From the IMG/VR virus record IMGVR_UViG_3300037484_000317: a stretch of DNA of 64,000 nucleotides; one strand, given 5' to 3'. The position numbers and the translations under genes were made by a program. The notes below the pieces were generated by a model, which saw nothing but the letters and a program-made list of their open reading frames with translations, was not told the DNA's origin and did no database searches. Positions within the stretch are counted from its first letter, which is position 1, and each line of letters opens with the position of its first letter. The DNA comes from a virus. Lineage: Duplodnaviria > Heunggongvirae > Uroviricota > Caudoviricetes. Positions 9,333-62,058 of the stretch are shown piece after piece.

Positions 9333-9340
9333 ACCCTACT

Positions 9341-30609: not shown

Positions 30610-30882
30610 ATGAAGCTAAGTCAAATACAGTTCGACCTGCTCCGTGCTATCGCCAGCTCCGCTTCCAAGCGAATCGTTACGATCGGTGGTGGCTACTGGG
30701 CTGTAGATGGTGTTCGTGTGTCGGAGGGAGCACGTACGGTGCACGCGCTTGAGAGACGGGAACTCGTAGCGAAGCTCCCAGGCGCCAGATACAGTTCGAC
30801 CTACGAGTTGACGAAACTCGGTGTGATCCTGTTGTTGGATGCAGGGATGCACATTGGTTCCGAGGGACGGATGGCGCCATGA
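30610..30882 (+). CDS. small winged-helix-like protein
   Basis: QFDLLRAIASS…RTVHALERRELVA is wH-like. Confidence 0.4.
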   Translation: MKLSQIQFDLLRAIASSASKRIVTIGGGYWAVDGVRVSEGARTVHALERRELVAKLPGARYSSTYELTKLGVILLLDAGMHIGSEGRMAP

Positions 30883-45227: not shown

Positions 45228-46751
45228 ATGAAATTCGACTTCCTCACCCCTGCTGATAAGCCAGCCTGCTATCATGTAGCCAACCCACAGGGTTTGGACG
45301 TCAAGTTGTTTGCGAATCCCAACGTCCTCCTAGAGAAGGATGGGTTCGCGCAGCTCTTTGACTTCCTGGACGTGGCCCGTGCCGTTTCCGACGTGCGGGA
45401 GGCGGAAGTCAAGGGCAGGTTGTCCTACTTTAGGGATGCCCCTGCTGGCATAGACAAGGTCGTTCTGACTCCGGATTTCCACAAGGGGTCTTTCGTTCCT
45501 GTGGGTGTTGTCCTTCGGGCCAATCACTTCGTCATCCCACAGGCCATCGGAAACGACATCTGCTGCGGGATGCGTCTCTTGGTGACGGACATTCCGGTAG
45601 AGGCACTGGATCCCTACTGGCCTGACATCCAGAAGCGGCTACGTGCGATCTTCTTTGCAGGCGAGCGGAATATCCCAATGTCTCCCCGCCAGCGAGAGGC
45701 TGTACTTCGTGAGGGTTTGCCTGGTCTCTTGCGGTTTGCCGAAGACAACGAGAAGACCGGCATTTGGACTCGGTTTGACCGTGCTTCTGAAATGGCCAAC
45801 GTGTCCAGGGCGCACAACAATGGTCAGGTAGAGACTACTCGTCTCTTTGGATTCGAAAAGTTCATCCGCTCTTCCGGAAAGGTGGATGGACGAGATCCTC
45901 AGATCGGATGTGTGGGAGGTGGAAACCACTTTGTGGAGCTGCAACGCATTGATGCTCTCTACTCGTCTCAAGCGCACGAGTGGGGATTGAGCAAGGGATG
46001 TCTGGCTATCATGGTCCACTCCGGGTCTGTGGCGCTGGGTCATACCGTTGGTGGCTACTTCATGGGACGCGCTAAGGAGCTTTTCCCGACGACCGTGAAG
46101 GCTCCGGCAGAAGGCTTCTACCCCATCCCCACAGATGGCCCACTGGCAGATGAGGGACGTTTCTACCTAGACGGGATGGGCAATGCCGCGAACTTCGCTT
46201 TTGCCAACCGCCTCTTTCTTGGGTTGATGGCAGTTCGCGCAATCGAAGAGGCCACAGGGCGCACGGTTTCATCTCGGCTAGTGTATGATGCACCCCACAA
46301 TCTCGTGTTCCACACCGGGAAGAGCATGGTCCATCGGAAGGGTGCCACACCTGCGTACGGCCCTGATGAGAAGGACTACAACGGTCGCCCGGTAATCATT
46401 CCCGGGTCCATGGGGGCGGCTAGTTATCTTCTAGCAGGTCTCGGAAATGAGAACGCTCTTTCGAGCGCATGTCATGGAGCAGGACGGGCTTTGTCGAGAA
46501 GCAAGGCTTCTCATGTGGCTAAGGATGTCTACGAACGTGAGACTGGTGGGCTGCGAATCGTGGGTCCCGTAGACTTCAGGGACCCAGCTCTTTCTCGCCG
46601 ACGGGACATCCTAGATAACTACGAGAAGAGAATGATGGAGGAAGCGCCGTACGCGTATAAGGCTGTGGAGCCTGTAGTTGACTCTGTTGTCGATGCTGAG
46701 ATTGCAACGAGGGTCGCTCGACTCTGGCCCATTTGCACGGTGAAGGGGTAA
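45228..46751 (+). CDS. rtcB: RtcB RNA ligase (long, archaeal/eukaryal-type, 507 aa)
   Basis: GGGNHFVELQ metal-binding motif and the C-terminal HGAGR motif carrying the GMP-attachment His. Confidence 0.8.
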   Translation: MKFDFLTPADKPACYHVANPQGLDVKLFANPNVLLEKDGFAQLFDFLDVARAVSDVREAEVKGRLSYFRDAPAGIDKVVLTPDFHKGSFVPVGVVLRANHFVIPQAIGNDICCGMRLLVTDIPVEALDPYWPDIQKRLRAIFFAGERNIPMSPRQREAVLREGLPGLLRFAEDNEKTGIWTRFDRASEMANVSRAHNNGQVETTRLFGFEKFIRSSGKVDGRDPQIGCVGGGNHFVELQRIDALYSSQAHEWGLSKGCLAIMVHSGSVALGHTVGGYFMGRAKELFPTTVKAPAEGFYPIPTDGPLADEGRFYLDGMGNAANFAFANRLFLGLMAVRAIEEATGRTVSSRLVYDAPHNLVFHTGKSMVHRKGATPAYGPDEKDYNGRPVIIPGSMGAASYLLAGLGNENALSSACHGAGRALSRSKASHVAKDVYERETGGLRIVGPVDFRDPALSRRRDILDNYEKRMMEEAPYAYKAVEPVVDSVVDAEIATRVARLWPICTVKG

Positions 46752-46759
46752 CTCCAACC

Positions 46760-47341
46760 ATGATCAATCTGGCAGGGCATAAGGACCCGGACCCCATCTG
46801 TGAGGAAGAACTCTTCATCGCAGGTATTGCCCCCGTGCGACAAGAGTGCTTTCCGACAAATCGTGAGGTCAAGACTCGGGTCACGGGGCAGCTTGGTGGC
46901 ATCACGTTCCATCGTGCCTGGTACTACTGGGTTGCGGATGGTGACGTGCCCCTGGACGTAGCCCACAAGATGTATGCACAGGAGCCCTACGGGAAGCGTG
47001 ACGTGCGGGTCGCTGGGCACTGTGGTTGCCCGCCTCCAGAGGAATGGGCAGAGCACCGAGATGCAAACGGGAAACGGGTGATTCTACTTAGTCCAGGGGA
47101 CAGAGACCTCGTCACCCAGTTCTACGCGGGGACTCTGGCCCCATTCATGAACGATGTCATCCTCAAGATGTGCACAGAAAATACCTGTGTGACAACCAAG
47201 GAGGAACGAGACAAGCTCTCTGTATCAGCGTTCGTCACGACATATCACATTGACTCTCAGGCCGGACTCAAGGTCTTTGCGGATGCGATGCGAGAACGAC
47301 TGACACAAACGGATAGTTTGGGTTGGTCCCGTGGTGATTGA
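46760..47341 (+). CDS. hypothetical protein
   Basis: Internal ATG. Confidence 0.45.
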   Translation: MINLAGHKDPDPICEEELFIAGIAPVRQECFPTNREVKTRVTGQLGGITFHRAWYYWVADGDVPLDVAHKMYAQEPYGKRDVRVAGHCGCPPPEEWAEHRDANGKRVILLSPGDRDLVTQFYAGTLAPFMNDVILKMCTENTCVTTKEERDKLSVSAFVTTYHIDSQAGLKVFADAMRERLTQTDSLGWSRGD

Positions 47342-47347
47342 CATCCC

Positions 47348-47791
47348 ATGATCATCAATCCGTTTGGTCCCTATTCGTTCGTGAACAGCGCGATTGCCAT
47401 AGGTGGCATCGCTGCGTACGGGGAGCCCCTCGATCGATTCGGATTCATACTGAATGTGGCTTTGGAGTTCTTTGAGGACCCACCCGGGGAGAGGTCCGTA
47501 ACGAGCGGAGGTCAGCCGGTCCAACAGATGCGGCTGGTAGACACCAACGATATTGAGTCCCAAGTTCCATCGGTTCTACGGGCTGTGGGCTTGGTCCACG
47601 CTGCACGTCTGGAAGACAAGTTTGTACTTGTGACGTGTGCTGCCGGCCGAAATCGGTCAGCCCTCGTGGTCGCGGAGTATCTCATTCAGCATGGGCATGA
47701 CGCCCAGAAGGTGATTTCCGGTATCCAGGCAAGGCGGGCCAAGTCCCTGACCAATGAGACGTTCGTGAACTGGCTACTAAGGCGTCGATGA
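47348..47791 (+). CDS. dual-specificity/tyrosine protein phosphatase
   Basis: CX5R P-loop VTCAAGRNRS. Confidence 0.65.
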   Translation: MIINPFGPYSFVNSAIAIGGIAAYGEPLDRFGFILNVALEFFEDPPGERSVTSGGQPVQQMRLVDTNDIESQVPSVLRAVGLVHAARLEDKFVLVTCAAGRNRSALVVAEYLIQHGHDAQKVISGIQARRAKSLTNETFVNWLLRRR

Positions 47792-48621
47792 ATAGGGATC
47801 CAGTAAATATGAACCACGTCGAATTTCAATCCTGTCGAGTGCTCTCTAATAACGAGGTTTCTGAAGACCAGTGGAGTGCTATTCAACACGCCTATAAGAG
47901 CATTGAAGAGCTTGCACTCCGTGACTGGAGTCCGGATAAGAGTGACGAATCCTCGTCGCTTGTCCCAAGGTTCAACCAGGTTGGCAGCGCAACCTGTACC
48001 CTTTTCGAGGGTGACGCCTTCATGACTTTGTTGGATGCCATCACAACGTTGCACACTCGGCCCCGTGTGGAATCCTCCATTCGTGACTCGATCGTATCTG
48101 GGCATGGTCGTTGTCTGGAGACCAATAACCGCACCATTACTGTTCCTGTCACGCCCATCGTGTTAAGGGATCTCCCTTACAACTTGGGTGTCACACCTCT
48201 CATCTTGGTGAATTCCTTTGAGGCATTAGTTGTTGCCTTGCGTGCTCGTTACGGCCCCCGTGATTCTTCAAATGGGTTCCGAGACGACGCGTTGAAGTGT
48301 TGGCCTGCGCTGGAGCGTGTGCAGCGTGCTGGCACTGTCGGATGGATGGCCGTATCTCGACCCGAGGTTGGTGACTTGTATGCCGCAGAAGGTGAGATGC
48401 TCAAAATCGAAGCGTGGCGAAGAGACTTGACGCCTTCGTTCCGCGGCTTCATTGATGCTCTAGCCCGAGACTATTCCCGGTACGTGGATGTACCTACCCC
48501 ACTGTTTGTAGTGCCGATTGATGCGGCTGGTGTTACGCGCCCGGAACAGAGGGATGAACTTTTCAAGCTCCTCCCTTTGCTAAGACACCCTCGCGTGCTC
48601 TATCTCATCAACAGTGACTAG
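47788..48621 (+). CDS. hypothetical protein
   Basis: 277-aa ORF. Confidence 0.5.
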   Translation: MNRDPVNMNHVEFQSCRVLSNNEVSEDQWSAIQHAYKSIEELALRDWSPDKSDESSSLVPRFNQVGSATCTLFEGDAFMTLLDAITTLHTRPRVESSIRDSIVSGHGRCLETNNRTITVPVTPIVLRDLPYNLGVTPLILVNSFEALVVALRARYGPRDSSNGFRDDALKCWPALERVQRAGTVGWMAVSRPEVGDLYAAEGEMLKIEAWRRDLTPSFRGFIDALARDYSRYVDVPTPLFVVPIDAAGVTRPEQRDELFKLLPLLRHPRVLYLINSD

Positions 48622-49661
48622 TGGATTACGCTGCATCCGAGTCCGAGATCGAAAAGATCACTGAGCGCGTCAGTGGATTGATTCGAATGGCGCGTGGTGG
48701 GGTAAACCACAACGAGTGCCTCTCTGCGTTATCCGCAGCAAAGAAACTGATTGGGTTTTACAAGCTCAATCCGAAGGATTTCGGGCTGAAGGTTCCGAAG
48801 GCACAACCCTCTCAACGCTCCGAACCTGAATGGGAGATGCCTCCATCTTTCGTACAAGTAATCCCCCATGGTACTTCGATGGGTGGGTCTCCAGCCAACC
48901 CACTGGTTGAAGAGATGAAGTATCACGATGGATGGCTTCTGTTTACGAACTGGGTTGGACACAGGAACGTGGAACAAATGTGGGCAGAGTGCTTCGATGC
49001 CCCCAGCATGCTCTGGTATGCGTGGCTTCGTGGCGTGCCACTTGGGTATCAGGTTCTTGCGTTGTGCGCTGTTGCGAATCTTTCCCGAAAGAGACTGAGT
49101 CATCCTGATCCACGTTTTGCAGAAGCGCTGAAGGTGATGATGCAGATGTGCGTGAACGACCCCAGTAGGCCACTTGATACAGCAGTACTCGTGAAAGCCA
49201 TGGAACTGGCAAATTCCGCTTATCCTTCGGAGTTGCTTCGGGGGACACCCAAGACAACAGTTGTCGAACCCAACAAGTTAATGGCGGCTGAAGTGTCGAA
49301 GGTCATTGAGCAGATCGCAGAATATGCCATTCGGGCCGTAGCTGAGTGGCCAGAAACTACAGCTGCCACTCAACGGCGTATGAACGATGCATTGCGCAGC
49401 GTCGAAAGTAGTATCGGGTACAGTCTTGACTGTTGGCCGGAAGCTGCGGATGCGGTTCGCAAGTACATCCCATTCGAAGTGCTACAGGAAGCCCTGTTCC
49501 AAGACATCTTTGCGGATGGTAAATACCCGTACAAGCCACTAGATGGTGCCATGAGAAAAGCTGAACTGGGTGGCACCTCGCCCAAGTTCTGTGATCAGTG
49601 TGGCGCAAGACATGCTCCTAGGGCCCAGTTCTGCGCCTCTTGTGGGAAGAAGGCTCTATGA
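48621..49661 (+). CDS. hypothetical protein with C-terminal zinc ribbon
   Basis: CDQCGARHAPRAQFCASCG. Confidence 0.5.
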   Translation: MDYAASESEIEKITERVSGLIRMARGGVNHNECLSALSAAKKLIGFYKLNPKDFGLKVPKAQPSQRSEPEWEMPPSFVQVIPHGTSMGGSPANPLVEEMKYHDGWLLFTNWVGHRNVEQMWAECFDAPSMLWYAWLRGVPLGYQVLALCAVANLSRKRLSHPDPRFAEALKVMMQMCVNDPSRPLDTAVLVKAMELANSAYPSELLRGTPKTTVVEPNKLMAAEVSKVIEQIAEYAIRAVAEWPETTAATQRRMNDALRSVESSIGYSLDCWPEAADAVRKYIPFEVLQEALFQDIFADGKYPYKPLDGAMRKAELGGTSPKFCDQCGARHAPRAQFCASCGKKAL

Positions 49662-49945
49662 TTCCTTCCGTAGGATCGATTAGCACGACCAACGTTTTTC
49701 ACTTCATTGAAGCACTTGGAGTCCAACAGCTACGGAGAGACCTTCCTCATTGGAAGTGGGTTGCATTGCACCGTGGATTTGGATGGTGGTATCAGGGCAC
49801 GTACGGAAAGCGGATGGCCATGGTCTACCCGTGCGCAATGTTGACCGGAATTGAGGATGTCTATCGCACTGTGTGGATGGTGTGCGAGGAAAAGACAGAT
49901 ACGCAGTTTGCTTTGTGGTACTGGACTGCGAAAGAAGGGGCATAG
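49658..49945 (+). CDS. hypothetical protein
   Basis: ATGA overlap with the upstream stop. Confidence 0.4.
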   Translation: MIPSVGSISTTNVFHFIEALGVQQLRRDLPHWKWVALHRGFGWWYQGTYGKRMAMVYPCAMLTGIEDVYRTVWMVCEEKTDTQFALWYWTAKEGA

Positions 49946-49946
49946 A

Positions 49947-50243
49947 ATGCGAAGAGAGCTGTCAGCGGATAACACTGGACTCATCCTGGATGGAAATCCA
50001 GACGAGCGGGCTCCAGCCTGGGGCAAGATCACCTATAGTGTGAGTGAACCTAAGGGGCGCGAGTCGTACATGGGTGGTGGGGTCTATTGGTGTAGTCACT
50101 GTGCATCCTGGCGTCCCTTCGAGGAAGGTTGCGCTGACGCGGCCGAGCGCACTACTGGACCGATTTGCGACGAGTGCTGGTCCCGGTGGGTGGGCTTGGG
50201 GATGACAGGACGTTGGGTTGAGGGGGACGCTCTGTGTACGTGA
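49947..50243 (+). CDS. zinc-ribbon protein
   Basis: CSHCASW…CDECWSRW. Confidence 0.4.
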   Translation: MRRELSADNTGLILDGNPDERAPAWGKITYSVSEPKGRESYMGGGVYWCSHCASWRPFEEGCADAAERTTGPICDECWSRWVGLGMTGRWVEGDALCT

Positions 50244-50452
50244 AGCGTTGCACGATCACCGTGGGGAACCTGTGGGGAGTGTCCGCAGTCGAGCGTGAGG
50301 TACGTGGCGTTCTCTTTCGGGAGGGGTTCGAGTTCACGATCGAAAAACAGCGGGGCTGGATGAACACGGTCTTCTACCTGACGGTTCGAGGACCCATCCC
50401 GGAGAAAGTAGAGAATGTTGTCTCCAGAATCAGTGCGTGGATCAATCAGTGA
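50234..50452 (+). CDS. hypothetical small protein
   Basis: 72-aa ORF. Confidence 0.4.
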   Translation: MYVKRCTITVGNLWGVSAVEREVRGVLFREGFEFTIEKQRGWMNTVFYLTVRGPIPEKVENVVSRISAWINQ

Positions 50453-50464
50453 CCTGGGATCAAA

Positions 50465-50508
50465 TCGTGTAATCCTCCGACCCCCATCCGTTAGTGGGGT
50501 GAGGACAT
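50465..50508 (+). promoter_or_regulatory. conserved bipartite promoter motif
   Basis: CGTGTAAT-N14-CCGTTAG TGGGGTGAGGA, then ATG at 50513. Confidence 0.55.
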
Positions 50509-50512
50509 CACC

Positions 50513-50710
50513 ATGCGAAGGACCACAGCGGACATCCGACAGAGTCTGACCCGTCACGGCTACGTGGCCAAGGGTCCCGTGGACCCGGTCGATAGCGTGG
50601 TGCGCAACCTCATTCGCCACGAACGAGACCTCCAGCACGATCGGCTACCCCGCTGCCTGATGTACTTGTTCGAGTACCTGGAAATTGCAGAGATGGAAGG
50701 GGAGAGCTGA
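50513..50710 (+). CDS. hypothetical small protein
   Basis: 65-aa ORF. Confidence 0.45.
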   Translation: MRRTTADIRQSLTRHGYVAKGPVDPVDSVVRNLIRHERDLQHDRLPRCLMYLFEYLEIAEMEGES

Positions 50711-50910
50711 TGGCCAAGCGCGTTCGGGATCGGGTGGAATGCGTCAAGCTCACGAAGGTCTCCCACGCTTGGAAACGTGGCGCGTACCTCCATGCGGCAG
50801 TGTACGTCGGCGCCAATGTGAGGGTCACCGCTGACAACTACCCGGTCGGTTCCGTGTTCCTGGATGCTCTTCCAATCTCGGAGCAGCGTCGCCTCAAGCT
50901 GAGTGCGTAA
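50710..50910 (+). CDS. hypothetical small protein
   Basis: 66-aa ORF. Confidence 0.45.
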   Translation: MAKRVRDRVECVKLTKVSHAWKRGAYLHAAVYVGANVRVTADNYPVGSVFLDALPISEQRRLKLSA

Positions 50911-50918
50911 GGAATCTC

Positions 50919-51359
50919 ATGATTGAAAAGCACATACGAAAAGATGGGCGCAGCGAAGAGGTTGTGATCGTTTACCCGGGGCACCCCCTCACGATTGCAA
51001 CGCTCATCCTTACGAAGTACGGGACGAGCGGTGTGGACCTGGCGGTGGCATTTGCCAAGCATGAGGCCAAGGACGGCTACTCTTGTCCCAATGCGCTTGC
51101 AGATGTGGACATCCCTGGGGCTGGGGACTGTGTTTACAACGCCCTGGACATCTTGCAGGGCATCCGGACGGGGATCCGGACCCCTGAGGCTGCCGTGGCT
51201 GAGGCCGCAGCCATATGGCGGTACGAGCGGGCATCCGACTACAAGGACAAGCTGGAGGCTGGGGAAGCCGAAGCCAAGTCTATCGAAGGGGACTTCCTTC
51301 TGCTAGCGAGGCGCATCGAGGTGTGGGGTGTTGTTGGAGATGGTCATGCGGCCGGATGA
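50919..51359 (+). CDS. hypothetical protein
   Basis: 146-aa ORF. Confidence 0.5.
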   Translation: MIEKHIRKDGRSEEVVIVYPGHPLTIATLILTKYGTSGVDLAVAFAKHEAKDGYSCPNALADVDIPGAGDCVYNALDILQGIRTGIRTPEAAVAEAAAIWRYERASDYKDKLEAGEAEAKSIEGDFLLLARRIEVWGVVGDGHAAG

Positions 51360-51915
51360 TGCGGCGATGATTGAGGCGTGCGAAGCGACCCGGGACGTTC
51401 TTCGCATTGAGGAACTCCTACAGTGCAAGAGGCTGGAAGTAGGGGCCATCGAGGAGACCCTTCGTTTCAAGAATGGGGAAGTGGAGGCTCTCGAAAAGAG
51501 CCTGGCTTGTGCACGGGAGATACACAAGATGGCTCGGGAGAATCTGAGAGCAATCCTGAAGGTTGAGGAGGATGCTGCGGGGATTTCGGTGGAAGATCTT
51601 GAAGCAGCTGGCATTAGTGATTTGGTGCGGCGAGTCCGTGAGCGTGCCCAGACAGATCAGCCTGGCGCCTTCGATGACCTACTTGCAACAATCGAGGAGA
51701 ACGCGAAGACCGACCCCCACACGATCGACCTCATCTTCAAGGATTTGGACACGGCCACGGACTCCCCGGAGCTTCTGATTGCGGTGCTCACGGCAACTCT
51801 CCGCTGGAAGGATTACACTCCCAGGCGCATGCGTTTCATTCAGGAAGTCGCGAACCGACTCAACGCAGAGGTGGGCGAAGTCCGCACCAACAACATCCTA
51901 AATGGTCTGCGGTAA
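51346..51915 (+). CDS. hypothetical protein
   Basis: The internal start is ambiguous; the frame runs 51328..51915. Confidence 0.45.
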   Translation: MRPDDAAMIEACEATRDVLRIEELLQCKRLEVGAIEETLRFKNGEVEALEKSLACAREIHKMARENLRAILKVEEDAAGISVEDLEAAGISDLVRRVRERAQTDQPGAFDDLLATIEENAKTDPHTIDLIFKDLDTATDSPELLIAVLTATLRWKDYTPRRMRFIQEVANRLNAEVGEVRTNNILNGLR

Positions 51916-51930
51916 GCGTAACCCACAATC

Positions 51931-52188
51931 ATGCCTGACAAGAACAAACTCAAGGTGCTGGCGGAGCAGGGTGTGCGGATCGTACCGACGTGCGGAACGT
52001 GTACGCACGGGAAGTTCTTCGGACGGCCGTGGGGAGAGTGCTCTCTTCGAACGTACCAACATGAAAAGCACACCGGGCTACGGCAAATGCCAGCCCATCT
52101 GTCGTTCACCTGTCCCAGTTATGGGTCCGGGTCTGCGAATCTCCAAGAGCTGGGTGAGTACGCCACCCTGATTCCTACGAAAGACTGA
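51931..52188 (+). CDS. small Cys-containing protein
   Basis: CGTCTHG…C…CPSYG. Confidence 0.4.
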   Translation: MPDKNKLKVLAEQGVRIVPTCGTCTHGKFFGRPWGECSLRTYQHEKHTGLRQMPAHLSFTCPSYGSGSANLQELGEYATLIPTKD

Positions 52189-52213
52189 ACTACGAAAATC
52201 GTCGTTCTGGTAC
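52186..52213 (+). promoter_or_regulatory. sigma70-like promoter (TTGACA-N16-TATGTT) upstream of the methyltransferase gene
   Basis: cTTGACAcctgaaccttctggtaTATGTTacc; this is a different class from the CGTGTAA/CCGTTAC motif. Confidence 0.45.
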
Positions 52214-52867
52214 TTGACACCTGAACCTTCTGGTATATGTTACCAGTACCCAAAGACAAACAAGATGGCACCCAAAGAAACACGAAATCCTTTCCGATGG
52301 TCACGAGACACTCCGGCAGTCACGCCGAGTATCGTGCTGACTGACCCTCGCTACCCACACAACGTGGGGGCTGCGGTCCGTGCATGCTCGTGCTTTGGGG
52401 TGAAGCAAGTGTGGCTCACGGGTCATCGGGTCGCAGACCAGGTGGCAAAGGCTCAGAGGCTTCCACGTGAAGAGCGCATGAAGGGCTTCTCTGACGTTCA
52501 ACTGGTCCTGGAAGACCGTCCGTTCGACTACTTCGGGAAAGTCACCCCTGTCGCAGTGGAGCTTCTAGAGGGGAGTGAGAACCTCCTGACGTTCGAGCAT
52601 CCTGAGAACGCGGTGTACATCTTCGGACCCGAGGATGGCAGCATCCCTGGTCCGGTGCGCAAGCTGTGTCATCGTCGGGTGTTCATTCCTACACGGCACT
52701 GCACCAATCTAGGCGCCGCAGTGTATCTCTTGTTGTACGACCGCATGGTCAAGGATTTTCATGCGGGCCGGATACAGTCCCTGCCAATCAGCGAGACTCT
52801 GGCTGAAGATCGTGGCTGGGCTGTGGATGACAATCCCGAGTTCTCGGTAGCGGTAGCAGGAAAGTAG
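52214..52867 (+). CDS. SPOUT (SpoU/TrmH-type) RNA 2-prime-O-methyltransferase
   Basis: VVLTDPRYPHNVGAAVRACSCFGV… and AVYIFGPEDGSIPGPV match the TrmH/SpoU motifs. Confidence 0.7.
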   Translation: MTPEPSGICYQYPKTNKMAPKETRNPFRWSRDTPAVTPSIVLTDPRYPHNVGAAVRACSCFGVKQVWLTGHRVADQVAKAQRLPREERMKGFSDVQLVLEDRPFDYFGKVTPVAVELLEGSENLLTFEHPENAVYIFGPEDGSIPGPVRKLCHRRVFIPTRHCTNLGAAVYLLLYDRMVKDFHAGRIQSLPISETLAEDRGWAVDDNPEFSVAVAGK

Positions 52868-52870
52868 ATC

Positions 52871-54040
52871 ATGGCACTCTCAGAAATCAGCTCGTCAAAC
52901 GTCCCCGTCAAGATCTGGTCGCCCCTCAAGGACGTCGAGTCGGCAGCGTTGACGCAGCTTCGTAATACGGCCTCTCTTCCGTGGGTCGCACACCACGTAG
53001 CGGTTATGCCCGATGTCCATTTCGGAATCGGAGCGACGGTAGGAAGCGTTGTCGCCATGCGCGGGGCTGTTTCCCCGGCTTGCGTGGGTGTCGACATTGG
53101 CTGCGGAATGGCTGCAATCCGCACCAGTCTCCGCTCGCATGACCTTCCTCACTCCCTGCTTGCACTGCGCACGGACATCGAGACCGCAGTGCCTGTCGCA
53201 CACAACGGGCACAGCAAGGGAATGAGCCCTTATGCCCGCAAGAGTGAGCTGTGGGCAGAGTTCAAGGACTTGCACCCCAAGGTTCAGGACTTGCTCTCCA
53301 AGGCGCAGATTCAGCTTGGCACTCTGGGGGGTGGCAATCACTTCATCGAGATTTGCATTGATACTGAGAAGCGCGTGTGGGTGATGCTGCACTCGGGCTC
53401 GCGGAACATCGGCAAGTCCTTGGCTGAGATCCACATCGCGGTGGCCAAGAAGCTTGAGCACAACCAACCCCTGGTGGACCGAGACCTTGCGGTGTTTCTT
53501 GCGGGCACAAAGGAGATGCAGGACTATCGGCGAGATCTGTACTTCGCACAACGCTACGCGGCTGAGAACCGACAGGTGATGATCTCGCTGGTCAAGGACG
53601 TGATGGTCAAGCACTTCCCGCAGGTCACCTACGACCCGGTGATTGCGTGCCATCATAACTACGTCTCTGAAGAGACGCACTTTGGAGACGATCTGTTCGT
53701 GACTCGCAAGGGTGCCATCTCGGCCCGCAAGGGTGAGCTTGGGATCATTCCTGGCAGCATGGGCACCAAGTCCTACATCGTGAGTGGGCTTGGTTGTGAA
53801 GAGAGCTTCTGCTCGGCTTCGCATGGTGCTGGGCGCCGCATGTCACGAGGTGACGCAAAGCGGCGCTTCACACGAGATGACCTCGAAGAGCAGACGGCTG
53901 GTGTCGAGTGCCGCAAGGACGGGGGCGTGATCGACGAAATCCCAGCTTGTTACAAAGATATCGATCAGGTCATGGCGAATCAAGGCGATCTCGTGGCGAT
54001 CGTACACGAACTGAAACAAGTCCTGTGCGTTAAGGGATGA
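52871..54040 (+). CDS. rtcB: RtcB RNA ligase (short bacterial-type, 389 aa)
   Basis: GGGNHFIEICID and C-terminal SHGAGRRMSR. Confidence 0.8.
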   Translation: MALSEISSSNVPVKIWSPLKDVESAALTQLRNTASLPWVAHHVAVMPDVHFGIGATVGSVVAMRGAVSPACVGVDIGCGMAAIRTSLRSHDLPHSLLALRTDIETAVPVAHNGHSKGMSPYARKSELWAEFKDLHPKVQDLLSKAQIQLGTLGGGNHFIEICIDTEKRVWVMLHSGSRNIGKSLAEIHIAVAKKLEHNQPLVDRDLAVFLAGTKEMQDYRRDLYFAQRYAAENRQVMISLVKDVMVKHFPQVTYDPVIACHHNYVSEETHFGDDLFVTRKGAISARKGELGIIPGSMGTKSYIVSGLGCEESFCSASHGAGRRMSRGDAKRRFTRDDLEEQTAGVECRKDGGVIDEIPACYKDIDQVMANQGDLVAIVHELKQVLCVKG

Positions 54041-55122
54041 AGATGGATCAGACTACAGCAGTCGAGCGTTTGCGGAAGGCAAAACGTCCTGAAGACATCT
54101 TCGGGACGCTTGCGGAAGGCCCACTTCCGACGCGCTTGCACGCACTGAAGCACCGCTTCGATAGTCTTCTACTGCATGTGCATCCGGACCGTAATCCTGA
54201 CTTGCCGGATGCGGGACTACACATCACTCGCCTTATGGCTCTCCGAAAGGAAGCAGAGAACCTGTTGCAGACGGGGGCTTACGGCAAGGTGCGCAAGGCC
54301 GTGGTCGAAGCCGTGCTCAAATCTCGTACGGGCGTGTACAAGGTGCACAAGGAATATCGGGTGGGGGAGGTTGCAGACTTGTTCCTCGGCGAGACGGACA
54401 AGGGGCAGAAGTGCCTGTTGAAGGTGGTTCGGCACCCGAGTGAAAACGACCTACTTGATTTCGAAGCACGGACACTTGCGGAGCTGCACAAGCAGACTGG
54501 GGACAAGGCGAAGACCTTCCAGAAGTACCTTCCGAAGCTTCTCGACAGCTTTCCGCTAATCGAGGGGGGTAAACACCGGAGGGTGAATGTCTTGGACGTG
54601 GCTGAGGACTACGTCTCTCTCGCGGAGATTCACGCCGCATACCCTGACGGCATTGACCCCCGTGATGCGGCCTGGATGATTCGACGAGTCTTCGAGGTGC
54701 TCGGCTGGATTCACGAACTGGGGTACGTCCACGGTGCGGTGCTTCCAGAGCATGTGCTGGTTCACCCGACAGGACACGGAGCACGCCTAGTGGGCTGGTC
54801 CTATGCGGTCAAGACAGGACAACGGCTCTTGGCAGTCAGTGCTCTTCGCAAGGACATGTACCCGCCGTCTGTCATGAGCCGTAAGCCCGCCACACCAGTG
54901 CTTGACGTCCAGCTCGTTCGTGAGTGCGCAACTATCTTGCTGTCCGACAAGAACGGTTTGCTGCGGGCCGATGTACCGAAGGCACTCTCGGCTTTCCTGA
55001 CCAAGTGTAAGAGTGGAAAAGTCCTGGACGGTTGGGATGCCTACCGTGAGTACAACGAAGTTCTGAAGAAGTGTTATGGCAAGCGGGAGTATCGCGCGTT
55101 TGCGATGCCGACGAGTGTCTGA
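54037..55122 (+). CDS. J-domain (DnaJ-like) protein fused to a degenerate protein-kinase-like domain (pseudokinase)
   Basis: J-domain EDIFGTL…LKHRFDSLLLHVHPDRNPD…LHITRLMALRKEAENLL with the HPD motif. The kinase fold is QKCLLKVV (VAIK-like), …FEARTLAELH (alphaC), IHELGYVHGAVLPEHVLV (HRDLKPEN with D to A and K to V), and HGARLVGWSYAV (DFG replaced by VGW). Confidence 0.55.
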   Translation: MKMDQTTAVERLRKAKRPEDIFGTLAEGPLPTRLHALKHRFDSLLLHVHPDRNPDLPDAGLHITRLMALRKEAENLLQTGAYGKVRKAVVEAVLKSRTGVYKVHKEYRVGEVADLFLGETDKGQKCLLKVVRHPSENDLLDFEARTLAELHKQTGDKAKTFQKYLPKLLDSFPLIEGGKHRRVNVLDVAEDYVSLAEIHAAYPDGIDPRDAAWMIRRVFEVLGWIHELGYVHGAVLPEHVLVHPTGHGARLVGWSYAVKTGQRLLAVSALRKDMYPPSVMSRKPATPVLDVQLVRECATILLSDKNGLLRADVPKALSAFLTKCKSGKVLDGWDAYREYNEVLKKCYGKREYRAFAMPTSV

Positions 55123-55136
55123 GAAGGAGAGTCAAA

Positions 55137-56108
55137 ATGGGATATTCAAGCTGGTCGGGCGACGCATACGATCACATCAGCAGGCCACGTGCGAAGATGG
55201 ACTACGGCACTGCGAGGGCAACAGTCTTCTCGTCTCGACTCAAGTCGAGTCTCGACCCGAAGGGTGTGAAGGTTCGAGAGTCGCGAGACAGCGCCGACCA
55301 TCCGGAGAGCAACGCGATCGGCGTGCTGTTCGATGTGACGGGCAGCATGGGGCAGACGCCGTATGAGTTCGCCCAGAAGAAGTTGGGTGGCCTGATGAAG
55401 ATGCTCGTCGACAAGGGTGTGATCGGCCACCCCCAGGTACTCTTCGGCGCGATCGGCGACTCCTACTCGGACACAACGCCGTTCCAGGTCGGGCAGTTCG
55501 AGTCGGGCGTCGAGATGGACACATGTCTCACGGACATCTTCATCGAGGGCGGCGGCGGTGGCCAAAACAAGGAGAGCTACGGGCTGGGGCACTACTTCTT
55601 CGCACGTCACACGTCGATCGACTGCTCTGAGAAGCGTGGAAAGAAGGGCTACCTCTTCACGGTCGGTGACGAGCTGGTCTGGCCGACAATCACGGCCGCC
55701 GAAGCCGAGCGGGTCTTCGGGGACACGATCGAAGATACAACGGTGGCTGACCTCATCCATGAGTGTGAGAGCCGCTACAACGTGTTCCACATCGTCGTGG
55801 GGACGTCCACCGGTAATCGGCCTGAGATCCTCGCAGGATGGAAGGCGCTGCTCGGCGAGCGTGCACTCAAGCTCGATGACCCGGACAACATCTGCGAGCT
55901 GATTGCAGCGACCATAGGCCTCTGCGAGGGGCACAGCCTCGATGTGGTGAATGGCGTTCTGCGGGACTCCGGAGCCAGCGCAGGCGCCGTGAAGTCGGTT
56001 GGGGCTGCCATCGTTCCGCTGCGGGACTCCCTGGCGCGTTCGGCCGTTGGTTCGATCCTCGGGAACCTCCCAGCAAGCGCTGCACCCAGCGGCACCATCC
56101 GCCTCTGA
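55137..56108 (+). CDS. von Willebrand factor A (vWA) domain protein with MIDAS
   Basis: VLFDVTGSMG (DxTGS MIDAS) plus downstream T and D residues; a GAAGGAGAG RBS precedes the internal ATG. Confidence 0.6.
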   Translation: MGYSSWSGDAYDHISRPRAKMDYGTARATVFSSRLKSSLDPKGVKVRESRDSADHPESNAIGVLFDVTGSMGQTPYEFAQKKLGGLMKMLVDKGVIGHPQVLFGAIGDSYSDTTPFQVGQFESGVEMDTCLTDIFIEGGGGGQNKESYGLGHYFFARHTSIDCSEKRGKKGYLFTVGDELVWPTITAAEAERVFGDTIEDTTVADLIHECESRYNVFHIVVGTSTGNRPEILAGWKALLGERALKLDDPDNICELIAATIGLCEGHSLDVVNGVLRDSGASAGAVKSVGAAIVPLRDSLARSAVGSILGNLPASAAPSGTIRL

Positions 56109-56111
56109 GCC

Positions 56112-57374
56112 ATGTCCACCCACATCGTCACTGATCTGGGTTTTGGTGACGGTGGGAAGGGCACCATAGTCGATGCGGATGCGCGTCGCTGTTCGAGTCC
56201 ACCACTTGTGGTGAGGTACAACGGCGGCGCGCAAGCTGGACACAACGTGCATACAGCGGACGGGCGGCACCATACATTCTCACAGTTTGGGGCCGCCACG
56301 TTTGTACCGGGCTCTAGGACGTTGCTTTCGAAGCACTTCATCCTGCACCCGGGTGGGCTCATGGTTGAGAACGAGCACCTTGTCTCGCTTGGCGTTACTG
56401 ACGCCCTCAAGCGTCTCAGTATCGACGCACGAGCGCTGGTCATCACGCCGTATCATCAAGCCGCCAACCGTCTACGGGAAGCTGCTCGTGGTTCGGCTCG
56501 GCATGGCACTTGTGGTTTAGGGATTGGGGAAACGGTCGCCGATTCACTAGAGCACAGGGACGAAGCTTTGCGTGTGGCAGATCTTCTGGACCCCGCAACC
56601 CTTCGGCGAAAACTTTCCTCCGCGTGTGAGAGGATGCACCAGCAGATGCCATTGCCGTGGTCCGTGCGAGCGAACTTTGAGCTATGGCGTACGGCAGATC
56701 TGCTTACGAAGATCGGAAAGTTTCTTCATGTCATCTCCGCAAGTGATGCAGATTCTCAAATCAGAGAGTCAGAGCATGTGATTTTCGAGGGGGCACAGGG
56801 CGTGCTCCTCGATGAGTGGCTTGGGTTCCATCCGCACACAACGTGGAGCACCACGACCACGGCAAACGCTGACGCCATGATTGCGGAGACTGGCCGCACC
56901 GGGCCCGTAGAGCGAATCGGCGTCGTTCGTGCGTACGCAACCCGCCATGGTCAGGGCCCGTTCCCCACGGAGGATGCAGCACTCACAGAGCAGCTCCGCG
57001 ATACCCACAACACGGACACTGGACCTCAGGGCAGCTTCCGTGTCGGTTGGTTTGATGTGCCCCTCACCAAGTACGCATTGAGTGCGTGCCCTGGGATCAC
57101 GTCTCTCGCTGTGACGTGTCTCGATCGTCTTGCAAATGTTCCCGAGTGGTCTGTATGCGAGGCGTACGAAGGGGGAGATCGTCTAGTAGTGAACCACGGG
57201 CATGACCTCGCGTACCAGGAGCAACTGACGCACTACCTCATGGGGTGCACGCCCGTGCTGCGGGGGGTACCCAGTGATGTCCAAGGGTACGTGCGCGAGA
57301 TCGAGCAGTGTACAGGTCTGCCGGTCTCTGTCATTTCGCTGGGCCCCACAGCAGAAGACAAGCGCTGGATTTAG
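56112..57374 (+). CDS. adenylosuccinate synthetase family protein (PurA-like; candidate PurZ)
   Basis: P-loop GDGGKGTIVD (canonical GDEGKGK), VVRYNGGAQAGHNV, TCGLGIGET, FEGAQGVLLD, AYATRHGQGPFPTE, and SLGPTAEDK are collinear with PurA along the whole length. Confidence 0.75.
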   Translation: MSTHIVTDLGFGDGGKGTIVDADARRCSSPPLVVRYNGGAQAGHNVHTADGRHHTFSQFGAATFVPGSRTLLSKHFILHPGGLMVENEHLVSLGVTDALKRLSIDARALVITPYHQAANRLREAARGSARHGTCGLGIGETVADSLEHRDEALRVADLLDPATLRRKLSSACERMHQQMPLPWSVRANFELWRTADLLTKIGKFLHVISASDADSQIRESEHVIFEGAQGVLLDEWLGFHPHTTWSTTTTANADAMIAETGRTGPVERIGVVRAYATRHGQGPFPTEDAALTEQLRDTHNTDTGPQGSFRVGWFDVPLTKYALSACPGITSLAVTCLDRLANVPEWSVCEAYEGGDRLVVNHGHDLAYQEQLTHYLMGCTPVLRGVPSDVQGYVREIEQCTGLPVSVISLGPTAEDKRWI

Positions 57375-57417
57375 ATTCAGAGGTGTAAGGGATGCCAGTT
57401 CCGTGGGAAGGGGCACG

Positions 57418-57816
57418 ATGTCGATGACGCACAAGATTGATGCAGAGGCTCTTCGGGAGTTGGTTGGTAGGCTAGCCGGTGAGCTAGCCGGTAACGAAGA
57501 TGCAATCGAGCATGTCAACGATGTCCTCGTTGAACATGGGTTTATGATTAGGGGGCTTTATGGTGTGGTTGATTCGAGGCGCCCCCCGTATGTTCGTGTA
57601 GGGCTAAATGGGACTGCGATGCGTCGTCAGGGATCTGGTTACTATCGCGAATGGGGTGCATGGGGTGTGGGTGATGTCTTTGTCGATGGGCGACACGTTG
57701 CTTCCGTCCCGGATGGGGCGAAGAACTATTGCCGGGGGGTATTCCACGGTCTGGACCTGATCCCAATCTCACGGGAAGAGTATCTCAAAGACGGTGGGGA
57801 ACCCCGGGAAGGGTGA
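57418..57816 (+). CDS. hypothetical protein
   Basis: Internal ATG. Confidence 0.45.
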   Translation: MSMTHKIDAEALRELVGRLAGELAGNEDAIEHVNDVLVEHGFMIRGLYGVVDSRRPPYVRVGLNGTAMRRQGSGYYREWGAWGVGDVFVDGRHVASVPDGAKNYCRGVFHGLDLIPISREEYLKDGGEPREG

Positions 57817-57817
57817 T

Positions 57818-58093
57818 ATGACTGCATGGGTCGAAAAAAGTCCGGGTCAGAACGCTGCTGTGATCGACGAAGACAGCGGTCTAGGTGACTCCGCAGTACT
57901 TGTGGGGCTGGACAGACTTGATTGGATTCGGCTTCCTGAGAAGCTGGGTGGGATGCAGGTACGTGTCCTTTCCAGAGAACAGACGTTGTGCCCATTCCAC
58001 AAGAATCATGATTGCGCCCATTACCACCTAGACAGTGGATTCTCTGTGGCTGAGTGTGACCAGTTCTATTGGTACAGGAAGGTCACCCCGTGA
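57818..58093 (+). CDS. hypothetical small protein
   Basis: ATG after the upstream TGA. CPFHKNHDCAHYH. Confidence 0.4.
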   Translation: MTAWVEKSPGQNAAVIDEDSGLGDSAVLVGLDRLDWIRLPEKLGGMQVRVLSREQTLCPFHKNHDCAHYHLDSGFSVAECDQFYWYRKVTP

Positions 58094-58692
58094 AGCACTA
58101 TCCAAGCGTCAGTCGAGAGCCCCGGTACGGAGCACCATGCTACGTGTTCCCGAAGTACGACGGGTCGAACATCCGCGTCGAGTGGTCGCCCAAGAAGGGC
58201 TTCTCGAAGTTTGGATCCCGCAAGGTTCTGATCGGAGATGATGCTCTGCTTGCTGCTGCGTTCCCCCTACTTCGTGAGCATGAGGATGCCCTCGCGAAGA
58301 TCTTCCGTGGGGAGCGATGGGAGCGGGTGATTTGCTTCTTCGAGTACTGGGGCCCGAAGTCGTTTGCTGGGCTGCACGAGCCCGGGGACGTGATGAGCAC
58401 GACACTCATTGACCTTGACGTGTTCAAGCGGGGTCAAATCGACCCACGGGACTTCATCAAGCTCACGGAAGGCTTGCCCAACGTGGCGCAGTGCATCGGC
58501 ACTCGGTTCAACGCTGAGAACGCTGAACAGGTCCGGGACGGTACGTTCGAGGGGCAGACCGATGAGGGTGTCGTCTGCAAGGTGCCGTCATCTCGCAAAT
58601 GGGAACCGCCGTACATGTTCAAGAGCAAGCGGTCTACCTGGATTGAGCGGGTCTATGCTCTTCACGGGGCACGAGCGGAAGAGTTCCTGTGA
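58090..58692 (+). CDS. ATP-dependent RNA ligase, minimal nucleotidyltransferase domain (Rnl2/Rnl-like)
   Basis: Motif I FPKYDGSNIRV (KxDGxN adenylation Lys), III ICFFEYWG, IV LIDLDVF, V EGVVCKVPSSRKWEPPYMFKSK. The GTG start overlaps the upstream stop. Confidence 0.6.
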   Translation: MKHYPSVSREPRYGAPCYVFPKYDGSNIRVEWSPKKGFSKFGSRKVLIGDDALLAAAFPLLREHEDALAKIFRGERWERVICFFEYWGPKSFAGLHEPGDVMSTTLIDLDVFKRGQIDPRDFIKLTEGLPNVAQCIGTRFNAENAEQVRDGTFEGQTDEGVVCKVPSSRKWEPPYMFKSKRSTWIERVYALHGARAEEFL

Positions 58693-60837: not shown

Positions 60838-62058
60838 ATGAAATTCTCGATCAGTAGGAAGAGCCTTTTGCAGGGTCTGGATTGTATTCGCACCACGGCT
60901 GCTAAGAAGAGCACAATTCCAATCCTGAACGGTGTCTGTCTCAAGGCAGAGGGAAGTGGCGTATGCTTCTCCGCAACAGACTGCACTGTGTTCATTCGGA
61001 CTCAGATCGCAGCGACGGTTGCACTGGAGGGCTCCGTTGTGGTGAATGCCCGAGATCTCTACGACATTGCGAAGGTGTTACCAGACGGACCTGTGACCTT
61101 CGAAGTGAGCGAGCACCTTGTACTGGAAGTGACTTGTGGGAGAATTAGCCACAAGTTGCAGGGCCATTCGAGCGAGGACTTTCCGGTGTTCCCTGAACGT
61201 GTGGATGCGGGGTGTGTGAAGATTGATGTGGGGATGGTCAAGGAGTTGATTGACTGCACCCAGTACGCAATCTCGAATGGGAATTGGAACAGCCCGGGTA
61301 CCTGTGGGGCTTCCTTTGAGTGTGATGGTGGCACTCTTCGTATGATCGCTACAGACGGCCTGCGCCTCAGCAAGGCGGAGATCAAGATGGATGGGGTTGT
61401 GTCCGACTTCAAGATGCTCGTGCCGTCCAAGGGCATCCAAGAGCTGCTGGGGCTCGTTGAAGGGGTTCAGGTCAGTCGTAAAAAGGGAGATCATCGAGGC
61501 GCGGCCCGATGGCAACCTCTGGTGGTTGAAGTGAGTCAAGAGCGTGGGACAGCGTTCTTTTACAGCTCTGGGATACAACTCTCGGTACGGCTTATCGAAG
61601 CTACATTTCCTTCGTACGAGTACGTCATCCCCAAGAAGGATGAGATCGTTGTACTTGCCTCGCGGATTGTTCTGCTAGAGGCATTGAAGAGGATCTCTCA
61701 TGGTAAGTGGGGTAGCGTTCGGCTTGAGTTCCTTCCAGGGAAGTGGAACAGAGACAGCTCTGAATATCTTTCAGGGAGTCTGAAGATCTTCAGTGCCGAT
61801 CCTAATGTGGGTGAAAGATCCGAGGAGGTCACCGTGGATTACACGGGGGACCCCATCACTATCGGGTTCGAAGCGATGTACCTGCTCGATGTGCTCGGAG
61901 CCCTGCATTCCGATGAGATTTCGCTAGGATTTTCTGTGACCAAGGGGACATCGAACACAATCAATCTGATGACTATCCGACCTGTACAAGAGTACAGTTA
62001 CATCGATTTCGTGGGTTTGGTCATGTCATTGCGGGCAAAACCAGACGGGACCTTTTGA
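60838..62058 (+). CDS. dnaN: DNA polymerase III beta sliding clamp
   Basis: The N-terminus MKFSISRKSLLQGLDCIRTTAAKKSTIPILNGVCLKAEGSGVCFSATDCTVFIR is collinear with DnaN, and the three-domain length fits. Confidence 0.7.
   Translation: MKFSISRKSLLQGLDCIRTTAAKKSTIPILNGVCLKAEGSGVCFSATDCTVFIRTQIAATVALEGSVVVNARDLYDIAKVLPDGPVTFEVSEHLVLEVTCGRISHKLQGHSSEDFPVFPERVDAGCVKIDVGMVKELIDCTQYAISNGNWNSPGTCGASFECDGGTLRMIATDGLRLSKAEIKMDGVVSDFKMLVPSKGIQELLGLVEGVQVSRKKGDHRGAARWQPLVVEVSQERGTAFFYSSGIQLSVRLIEATFPSYEYVIPKKDEIVVLASRIVLLEALKRISHGKWGSVRLEFLPGKWNRDSSEYLSGSLKIFSADPNVGERSEEVTVDYTGDPITIGFEAMYLLDVLGALHSDEISLGFSVTKGTSNTINLMTIRPVQEYSYIDFVGLVMSLRAKPDGTF

Follow-up and report, generated by a model that had tools for sequence, protein, structure and literature searches.

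Why a phage would place three RNA ligase genes, and with them a gene for an RNA 2′-O-methyltransferase, within 13.5 kb of its DNA is the question raised by positions 45228-58692 of a 64,000-nucleotide (nt) stretch from the IMG/VR virus record IMGVR_UViG_3300037484_000317, hereafter the window. A first-pass annotation had described two RtcB ligases (RtcB-1 and RtcB-2), an Rnl-type RNA ligase, a SpoU methyltransferase and a dual-specificity phosphatase in this region as one supercluster for RNA end healing and sealing. All five genes are present on the + strand within 45228-58692, with their catalytic motifs intact, in a tract of closely packed open reading frames (ORFs) that runs along the + strand from 44.8 to 62 kb without interruption. 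The present analysis points to a smaller unit, in which SpoU and RtcB-2, together with a short Cys-rich protein, probably form a real module. Moreover, the SpoU subfamily is recurrently and statistically linked to RNA-repair genes in other loci, which gives meaning to the methyltransferase-RtcB adjacency that the annotation had singled out.

SpoU and RtcB-2 lie in a compact block

The SpoU gene (52265-52867, + strand) probably starts at the ATG at 52265 rather than at the TTG at 52214, with which the mechanical ORF (52214-52867) begins. The TTG is part of the -35 box of a sigma-70-like promoter match (TTGACA-16-TATGTT, 52214-52241, + strand, 10 of 12 positions) that precedes the probable start; the match itself is weak evidence, as such matches are no commoner in the region than in shuffled sequence. 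Between the TAG stop of SpoU (52865-52867) and the ATG of RtcB-2 (52871-54040, + strand) stand only the letters ATC, so that the claimed gap of 3 nt is borne out by the sequence and the two genes share one frame. In addition, a Shine-Dalgarno-like AGGAAAG for RtcB-2 is located within the 3′ end of SpoU. Directly upstream of SpoU lies g51931 (51931-52188, + strand), which encodes a Cys-rich protein of 85 amino acids (aa) with unknown function and no Pfam family.

This three-gene arrangement recurs in related contigs. Homologs of g51931 (61-65% identity) are found immediately upstream of SpoU in three loci (L116, L118 and L119), while in a fourth (L001) the homolog separates SpoU from RtcB. The order g51931-SpoU-RtcB is kept in L116 (SpoU 81% and RtcB 72% identical) and likewise in L118 (78% and 70%), with gaps of 4-9 nt between the genes. 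The flanks of the L116 block contain no homologs of window genes, the three block genes alone being in common. Altogether, gene order and spacing suggest that g51931, SpoU and RtcB-2 are one real small module that is probably co-transcribed.

Two further features of these loci were observed. Genes for tmRNA occur on three related contigs (L116 2746-3144, L069 790-1165 and L009 19737-20156), and in L116 the g51931-SpoU-RtcB block follows directly on the tmRNA gene. In the window (52865-52873) and in L118 (1078-1092), SpoU ends with a TAG codon that shares its frame with the RtcB start, whereas in L116 (4256-4265) the stop is TGA and the two frames differ; amber-suppressor-like tRNA(CUA) genes are present on the related contigs L014, L018 and L020. 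Given the in-frame TAG and these tRNA(CUA) genes, read-through is conceivable and could yield a SpoU-RtcB fusion protein. The long SpoU “fusion” ORFs seen in some loci are a separate matter, and were discarded as spurious high-GC extensions at the N-terminus.

RtcB-2 (389 aa) is a short 3′-phosphate RNA ligase of bacterial type, matching PF01139 with E=5e-121 (405 bits, Pfam cutoff 27) and phrog_1075 with E=4e-137, whereas RtcB-1 (45228-46751, + strand, 507 aa) is of the long archaeal/eukaryal type and matches PF01139 with E=6e-84 (283 bits). RtcB-1 has the motifs PDFH (residues 82-85), NDICCG (109-114), GGGNHF (230-235), VHSGS (263-267), APHN (355-358) and CHGAGR (415-420), and every equivalent catalytic motif is present in RtcB-2. 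Both proteins align lengthwise with solved RtcB structures, RtcB-1 over its full length with those of Thermus and Pyrococcus. The residues that bind the metal and form His-GMP in Pyrococcus horikoshii RtcB, namely D95, C98, N202/H203, H234, H329 and H404, are identical in both paralogs. The GGGNHF and HGAGR motifs noted at first are hence part of a complete metal/GMP residue set, and neither active site is degenerate. With this residue set, both enzymes are predicted to seal 2′,3′-cyclic-phosphate or 3′-phosphate ends to 5′-OH ends in a GTP/Mn2+-dependent manner.

SpoU represents a distinct subfamily of SPOUT methyltransferases

The SpoU protein belongs to the SpoU/TrmH class of SPOUT RNA 2′-O-methyltransferases (PF00588, 60.1 bits against a cutoff of 29.7) and has the conserved motifs NVGAAVR (N50-R56), FGPEDG (G138-G142) and IPTRHCTNLG (I158-G167). 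Its subfamily is marked by an insert, LPREERMKG, with invariant residues R82, P84-R85-E86-E87-R88 and G91. Residues C60, C152, H153 and C163 are also invariant, and H162 is present in at least 90% of the members; the Cys/His residues may constitute a metal site, and the insert may serve to bind RNA. The subfamily is well conserved, with 1,419 matches at E<=0.001, and has members on huge-phage-like contigs.

The structure model of SpoU (predicted local distance difference test score, pLDDT, of 86) has SPOUT RNA 2′-O-methyltransferases exclusively as structural neighbours, among which TrmH, TrmJ, TrmL, RlmB and Nhr score about equally. Compared to the NCBIfam equivalog models of TrmL, TrmJ, TrmH(Gm18) and RlmB, which have cutoffs of 160-267 bits, SpoU reaches 17-28 bits. 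Similarly, the family profile matches solved SPOUT enzymes with E of ~3e-4 at best, and TrmJ, TrmH and TrmL do so alike. The possibility, raised in the first-pass annotation, that the enzyme groups with Gm18 or rRNA housekeeping methyltransferases thus fails for the characterised enzymes. SpoU is, however, 60-68% identical to cyanobacterial chromosomal genes with ordinary cellular neighbours.

The SpoU subfamily is linked to ligases of two superfamilies

Loci were collected by scanning metagenome and viral contigs with profiles and then searching all ORFs with hidden Markov models, and 155 SpoU loci dereplicated at 95% identity were used for the linkage statistics. An earlier conclusion, drawn from 12 IMG/VR loci and single-protein patterns, that the SpoU-RtcB adjacency is unique to the phage of the window was overturned by closer metagenomic relatives and the profile scan. 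Four patterns of linkage emerged, corresponding to four SpoU subclades that are mutually 50-65% identical. In clade A, SpoU is found with RtcB-2-type ligases (L116, L118). In L124, likewise of clade A, and in L126, SpoU (73% identity) is followed by a gene for a PTH2-type peptidyl-tRNA hydrolase and, 4.2 kb downstream, by an RtcB of another lineage that is 35% identical to RtcB-2. Clade B has the order RtcB-KptA/Tpt1-SpoU in four loci (L146, L147, L220 and L240). In clade C the partner is a minimal Rnl gene, 3-1424 nt from SpoU and on the same strand, in eight loci (L142, L145, L159, L178, L213, L219, L225 and L251).

Clade D is of bacterial type. Locus L176 (5424-15949) has a divergent RtcR gene followed by RtcB, RtcA, a 66-aa ORF, SpoU, a 117-aa ORF and Ro60 (TROVE and vWA domains), and further on a second RtcB, which is 34% identical to the first. 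On its predicted genes, L176 is a textbook bacterial Rtc/Rsr repair operon that encloses a member of the window-type SpoU subfamily. The pairing of SpoU with Ro60 is also found in L168 and L194. Across the patterns, the RtcB partners share 25-50% identity among themselves and represent at least three lineages, and the order of the genes varies from pattern to pattern.

The linkage is a matter of close range. Within 2 kb of SpoU there are sixteen ligase genes, each of them on the SpoU strand, against eight at 2-10 kb, which corresponds to densities of 3.2 and 0.58 per 100 kb, respectively, a 5.5-fold difference (binomial p=4e-5). Among the 96 loci having at least 2 kb on both sides of SpoU, 11 have a ligase within 2 kb. 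Genes for tRNA are a second feature of the surroundings: they occur within 10 kb in 46 of 82 SpoU-anchored, 40 of 80 RtcB-2-anchored and five of six RtcB-1-anchored viral loci. Several genes of the SpoU, RtcB and Rnl families are even embedded in tRNA arrays; in one case, the start of an Rnl homolog is 5 nt past a tRNA-Gly gene. The tRNA density around SpoU is flat, with 33.6 near and 30.0 far per 100 kb. With a gradient for ligases and none for tRNAs, SpoU and ligases are linked more closely than common membership in a tRNA island would explain. The window has neither tRNA genes nor matches to Rfam families, and hence gives no direct clue to the target RNA. As tRNA genes are frequent around all three gene families, tRNA is the most likely common substrate. 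The natural interpretation of the gene set is a role in mending broken RNA, most likely tRNA.

A few other genes near SpoU were recorded. A conserved ORF of 128-131 aa follows SpoU in the four RtcB-KptA/Tpt1-SpoU loci L146, L147, L220 and L240, and L146, on a contig of 443 kb, has genes for a GIY-YIG endonuclease, a vWA protein and a GroEL-like chaperonin nearby. None of our local Rnl, RtcB and SpoU profiles matched three other ORFs in the vicinity of SpoU, one of 202 aa in L279 and two, of 202 and 194 aa, in L116.

The remaining genes of the 13-kb cluster have separate histories

The Rnl-like ligase gene (58090-58692, + strand; mechanical ORF 58069-58692, 207 aa) encodes a covalent nucleotidyltransferase of ~200 aa, a probable ATP-dependent RNA ligase. 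Its probable start is the GTG at 58090 instead of the mechanical start at 58069, because family members begin with MK.YPS and an AGGAAGG lies upstream. The protein matches PHROG 548 “RNA ligase” with E=8e-9 and scores 16.8 bits against Pfam RNA_ligase (PF09414), below the cutoff of 27; many of its relatives carry a precomputed PF09414 match. A search of a collection of 5.8 billion proteins gave at least 397 relatives, nearly all of 200-206 aa and many on contigs of 200-860 kb. A homolog in Xanthomonas jumbo phage XacN1 is 38.5% identical. In at least nine loci besides the window, members of the family are found 3-1424 nt from SpoU-family genes.

In an alignment of 35 family members, residues K29, D31 and G32 (motif I, KYDGSN), E92 (motif III), D115 (motif IIIa), E166, G167 and K171 (motif IV), as well as K185 and K187 (motif V), are invariant, in agreement with the motifs I, III, IV and V recognized at first and with the addition of IIIa. 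A search of the PDB by sequence only returned noise, and both the family alignment and a structure model were needed. The AlphaFold model built on this alignment has a mean pLDDT of 93, and its 23 best Foldseek matches in the PDB are all RNA ligases, each with a probability of 1.00 and a template modelling (TM) score, normalised to the query, of 0.52-0.63. The best matches are TbREL1, T4 Rnl2, T4 Rnl1, Naegleria Rnl (NgrRnl) and archaeal MthRnl, with DNA ligases ranking lower. On the strength of this model, the protein is probably an RNA ligase. The family consists of the catalytic domain only and lacks the accessory domains that define Rnl1-Rnl5 (the C-terminal domain of Rnl1/Rnl2, the N-terminal OB domain of Rnl5); it is therefore placed in no named Rnl class and is called Rnl-like.

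The dual-specificity (CX5R) phosphatase gene (47348-47791, + strand) matches PF00782 with 42.7 bits against a cutoff of 33.5, as well as phrog_10650, and its product has the signature CAAGRNRS at residues 97-104. No phosphatase homolog stands beside homologs of RtcB-1, RtcB-2 or Rnl, and one weak match lies 7.6 kb from SpoU in L198; g46733 and the phosphatase gene have no conserved neighbours. Its proposed membership in RNA repair thus finds no conserved link to a ligase in the relatives, and a role of the phosphatase in any RNA repair is doubtful.

The notion of the 13-kb supercluster as one system does not stand up either, as the relatives have RtcB-1, Rnl and the phosphatase elsewhere or lack them. 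In IMGVR_UViG_3300033233_000001, homologs of g55071 and PurA come directly after that of RtcB-1 (75% identity), with no phosphatase, SpoU, RtcB-2 or kinase gene between them, and an Rnl homolog (65-66% identity) lies ~41 kb off on the opposite strand. RtcB-1 homologs likewise show no synteny with other parts of the cluster in relatives. By our own estimate, three ligase genes would fall within 13.5 kb by random placement with a probability of ~0.006 in a genome of 300 kb. The best explanation appears to be that the three ligases were acquired separately and are inherited separately rather than as one system, in a region that has gathered several genes keeping the translation RNA pool intact.

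Two more of the initial claims need to be toned down. Three ligases covering both end chemistries in one phage had been called unusual, which is overstated: in a survey of jumbo phages, mixed RtcB/Rnl complements are already on record, and a large phage that has more than one ligase and covers both chemistries fits a known pattern (Iyer, Anantharaman, Krishnan, Burroughs and Aravind 2021, PMC7824862). The survey reads these ligases as non-redundant, places PTH2, KptA and tRNA arrays in the same counter-measure, and cites XacN1 for three Rnl2 paralogs (PMC7824862). The repair kit had also been called complete, and a motif scan revealed no polynucleotide 5′-kinase or P-loop kinase motif in any window ORF.

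A model of sealing and protection

We propose, with a probability of roughly one half, that the module seals and protects RNA: SpoU would 2′-O-methylate the site of nuclease attack, and RNA that is resealed by RtcB-2 or still uncut would resist cutting. In this scheme, RtcB-1 and RtcB-2 would reseal breaks with 2′,3′-cyclic-phosphate or 3′-phosphate and 5′-OH ends left by host ribotoxins such as anticodon nucleases, and the Rnl-like enzyme would seal 3′-OH/5′-phosphate ends that result from other nucleases or from the action of healing enzymes with genes elsewhere. SpoU would act on the ribose at or beside the attack site, most likely in the anticodon loop of a tRNA, and its substrate could be the molecule before cleavage, in its nicked form or after resealing. 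With the methyl group in place, the 2′-OH nucleophile would be gone, and the RNA, whether resealed by RtcB-2 or still uncut, would escape cleavage or recleavage. Transesterifying RNases require the 2′-OH on the 5′ side of the scissile phosphate, a requirement that bacterial Hen1 exploits in the Pnkp/Hen1 system. Characterised SPOUT 2′-O-methyltransferases modify internal nucleotides of folded RNA. In addition, metal-independent ribotoxins leave ends that carry a 2′,3′-cyclic phosphate and lack a free 2′-OH, along with 5′-OH ends, and RtcB acts on the cyclic end directly. The internal specificity of SPOUT enzymes and the missing 2′-OH on the cyclic end together favour methylation of intact, nicked or resealed tRNA over the order used by Hen1. 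The target and position of methylation, its order relative to sealing, the protection and the counter-defence purpose are all what we infer.

A broader version of this proposal is tentative and rather on the unlikely side. The SpoU subfamily, with its PREERMKG insert and its CH...HC set, would be a dedicated immunising arm in RtcR operons and huge phages, convergent with and independent of Hen1. As such it would mark the attack site, and RNA resealed by RtcB or a minimal Rnl would escape a second cut.

Several observations weigh against a coupling of SpoU to repair. About 85-90% of the SpoU-family loci have no ligase within 10 kb. Loci within one subclade share ancestry, which brings the number of independent associations nearer to 4-8 than to 16; two unrelated ligase superfamilies and three other repair genes nevertheless seem to point the same way despite this kinship. 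Seen from the side of the ligases, SpoU is absent within 10 kb from all 80 RtcB-2-anchored loci, including that of the closest RtcB-2 homolog (L021, 87% identity), and its subfamily is absent from all 86 RtcB-anchored loci (80 RtcB-2, six RtcB-1). On the contig of L023, SpoU and an RtcB-2 homolog are ~35 kb apart. Neither fold nor profile searches assign a substrate class or position to SpoU. Finally, the cyanobacterial chromosomal copies lie beside ftsH and genes for a chorismate-binding enzyme, an M28 peptidase and TPR proteins. Such ordinary neighbourhoods, together with the ligase-free majority of loci, fit a housekeeping enzyme.

These observations feed the strongest alternative, which we consider rather unlikely. 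SpoU would be a host-derived housekeeping tRNA/rRNA methyltransferase that matures phage or host tRNAs, and its nearness to ligases would result from the gathering of tRNA-related accessory genes in common early or tRNA-island regions of huge phages and from the end-to-end packing of phage genes. The 60-68% identity to chromosomal genes of ordinary context, the scarcity of ligases near SpoU and the 86 RtcB-anchored loci speak for it. So do the tRNA arrays that contain or adjoin roughly half of the viral loci for SpoU, RtcB and Rnl, and the tight packing of the window between 52265 and 57374, where each gene touches or overlaps the next regardless of function. Against it stand a ligase density that drops 5.5-fold beyond 2 kb of SpoU while the tRNA density stays steady, and the shared orientation of SpoU with 16 of 16 near ligases. 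Moreover, the partners belong to two unrelated ligase superfamilies and several RtcB lineages in differing gene orders, and in L176 SpoU sits inside a bacterial RtcR-controlled RtcB-RtcA-Ro60 operon, where phage packing is irrelevant.

Sealing and protection could also be directed at rRNA, with one RtcB and the methyltransferase repairing and protecting rRNA cut by colicin-E3-like or sarcin-like toxins; we regard this as improbable. The precedent is RtcB2-PrfH, which, according to PMC9304027 and PMC9223846, repairs 16S rRNA cut by colicin E3. Many SPOUT enzymes 2′-O-methylate rRNA, and some of these are protective; the structural neighbours of SpoU include such cases, namely the enzymes for resistance to thiostrepton and nosiheptide. 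In addition, PTH2, tmRNA and a ribosomal-L12-like gene occur in related loci. Against this, no PrfH-like gene was seen, the NCBIfam model of PrfH-linked RtcB scored 145 bits against a cutoff of 272, and the neighbourhoods are dominated by tRNA arrays rather than by rRNA-related genes.

The order first suggested, in which SpoU, by analogy with bacterial Pnkp/Hen1, would methylate the 3′-terminal 2′-OH of broken RNA before sealing by RtcB-2, is the least probable of all, for although SpoU and RtcB-2 are tightly coupled and KptA/Tpt1, which also acts on the 2′ position of the junction, is encoded directly upstream of SpoU in L146, L147, L220 and L240, the ends left by ribotoxins offer no free 2′-OH and are used by RtcB as they are, the characterised SPOUT enzymes, including all structural neighbours of SpoU, act on internal nucleotides of folded tRNA or rRNA, and the module is linked in the window to neither a 3′-phosphatase nor a cyclic phosphodiesterase.

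Other genes of the window

The best inference is that the window is an accessory, non-structural region from a probable huge phage. Among the window ORFs scanned, no capsid, terminase or tail gene was found, and a megablast search against phage records gave no close DNA match to the 13.5-kb region. The nearest relatives of its genes are on IMG/VR contigs of ~100-545 kb, on the huge-phage records LR756511 and LR745208, and in XacN1.

Downstream of RtcB-2 follow three tightly packed genes that are not counted among the candidate RNA-repair genes. The start of a kinase-like gene (54037-55122, + strand, phrog_3043) overlaps the RtcB-2 stop (ATGA); its product has an HPD tripeptide at residues 49-51 in an N-terminal segment that resembles a J-domain, and Pfam reports no J-domain. 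It is followed by g55071 (55071-56108, + strand, phrog_2971), which has a DVTGSMG motif resembling a metal ion-dependent adhesion site (MIDAS), and by a PurA-type adenylosuccinate synthetase gene (56112-57374, + strand, PF00709 with E=1e-76). An assignment of the latter to PurZ of the 2-aminoadenine pathway was dropped, as the protein aligns to canonical PurA over its full length. The g55071-PurA pair is conserved independently in L020, L265 and L270. In several loci, PurA homologs adjoin SpoU-family genes (9 nt in L160) or lie a few kb from them; the loci cited for the pair and for this proximity are L020, L265, L270, L160, L149, L250 and L211. Recoding of TAG was also considered and rejected, since the genes are intact under the standard code and TAG serves as the stop in eight of 55 window genes.

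The PTH2-type peptidyl-tRNA hydrolase that the first-pass annotation had placed elsewhere in the window is encoded at ~7607-8017 (+ strand), as identified by its similarity (49% identity, E=2e-35) to a PF01981-annotated ORF of L124, which itself stands between SpoU and RtcB. An HNH/NUMOD3 homing-endonuclease-like gene (6742-7581) lies directly upstream. At 9263-10249 is a gene for a metallophosphoesterase of the lambda-phosphatase type (PF00149, phrog_246); in three of six loci (L015, L017 and L018), its homologs and those of RtcB-1 are 1.4-4 kb apart. It is a candidate end-healing enzyme, located 35 kb from RtcB-1 in the window. Further genes encode a DnaB-like helicase fragment (56-805), a DHH phosphoesterase (11282-12196), a DUF4419 protein (21514-22731), a NUDIX protein (30879-31328), a full NAD-dependent DNA ligase (33118-35025), an HD-domain protein (42027-42614) and a sliding clamp (60838-62058).

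Comparison with known systems and significance

To our knowledge, the coupling of RNA repair to protective methylation is known from one system, Pnkp/Hen1. The likeness to it is functional only, and consists of an RNA ligase and a 2′-O-methyltransferase in one operon, with a repaired junction that would resist recleavage. Hen1 has a Rossmann fold and acts on the 3′-terminal nucleotide before sealing, whereas the methyltransferase of the window is a SPOUT (trefoil-knot) protein. Similarly, Pnkp combines kinase, phosphatase and ATP-dependent ligase, whereas the partner here is RtcB or a minimal Rnl, with no linked kinase-phosphatase. Compared to T4 Pnkp and Rnl1, which counter PrrC, the shared theme is a phage-encoded healing and sealing of host-cleaved tRNA, and the Rnl-like gene encodes the same nucleotidyltransferase fold; however, the window has no Pnkp-type kinase-phosphatase, its ligase is a catalytic domain of 200 aa, and its main sealing chemistry is that of RtcB.

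The RtcR-RtcBA (Rsr/Ro60-Y RNA) operon of E. coli and Salmonella is related in another way. RtcB-2 is of the short bacterial type and 49% identical to the operon RtcB of L176, in which a window-type SpoU lies inside RtcR-RtcB-RtcA-Ro60, whereas RtcR, RtcA and Ro60 are absent among the scanned window ORFs. The literature searched holds no report of a SPOUT methyltransferase in the Rtc operons of E. coli or Salmonella. As to the methyltransferase itself, TrmL (Nm34) and TrmJ (Nm32) are small SPOUT enzymes of dimeric type with the same three motifs and fold, and methylation at their positions is of a kind that could block cleavage in the anticodon loop. SpoU differs from them in its scores (20-28 bits against equivalog cutoffs of 167-190), its own insert R..PREER..G and its Cys/His residues.

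The jumbo-phage survey has no mention of a SPOUT/SpoU RNA methyltransferase as a repair component (PMC7824862). The nearest observation is the co-enrichment of RtcB, archease and TrmH in some thermophilic hot-spring cyanobacteria (PMC9600594). No description of an RtcB or Rnl linked to a SPOUT/SpoU/TrmH methyltransferase was found in the literature searched, the coverage of which excluded Burroughs and Aravind 2016. The abstract of that work is said to name “methylases” for end protection in a general RNA-repair syntax. The concept of protective methylation is hence already known, and its SPOUT version may or may not be described there. The multi-ligase cluster itself is documented and ordinary; the partnership of a SPOUT methyltransferase with ligases is the specific new hypothesis.

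Of possible practical interest is the family of 200-aa ligases, as a candidate for a minimal RNA ligase. If the proposed coupling is true, a second methyltransferase family, unrelated in structure to the first, would serve to “seal and protect”, and this strategy would be a general answer to the conflict of ribotoxins with their targets. The Rtc/Rsr operons of bacteria would have one more candidate component, and phages would possess a concrete, testable counter-defence against immune systems that cleave tRNA.

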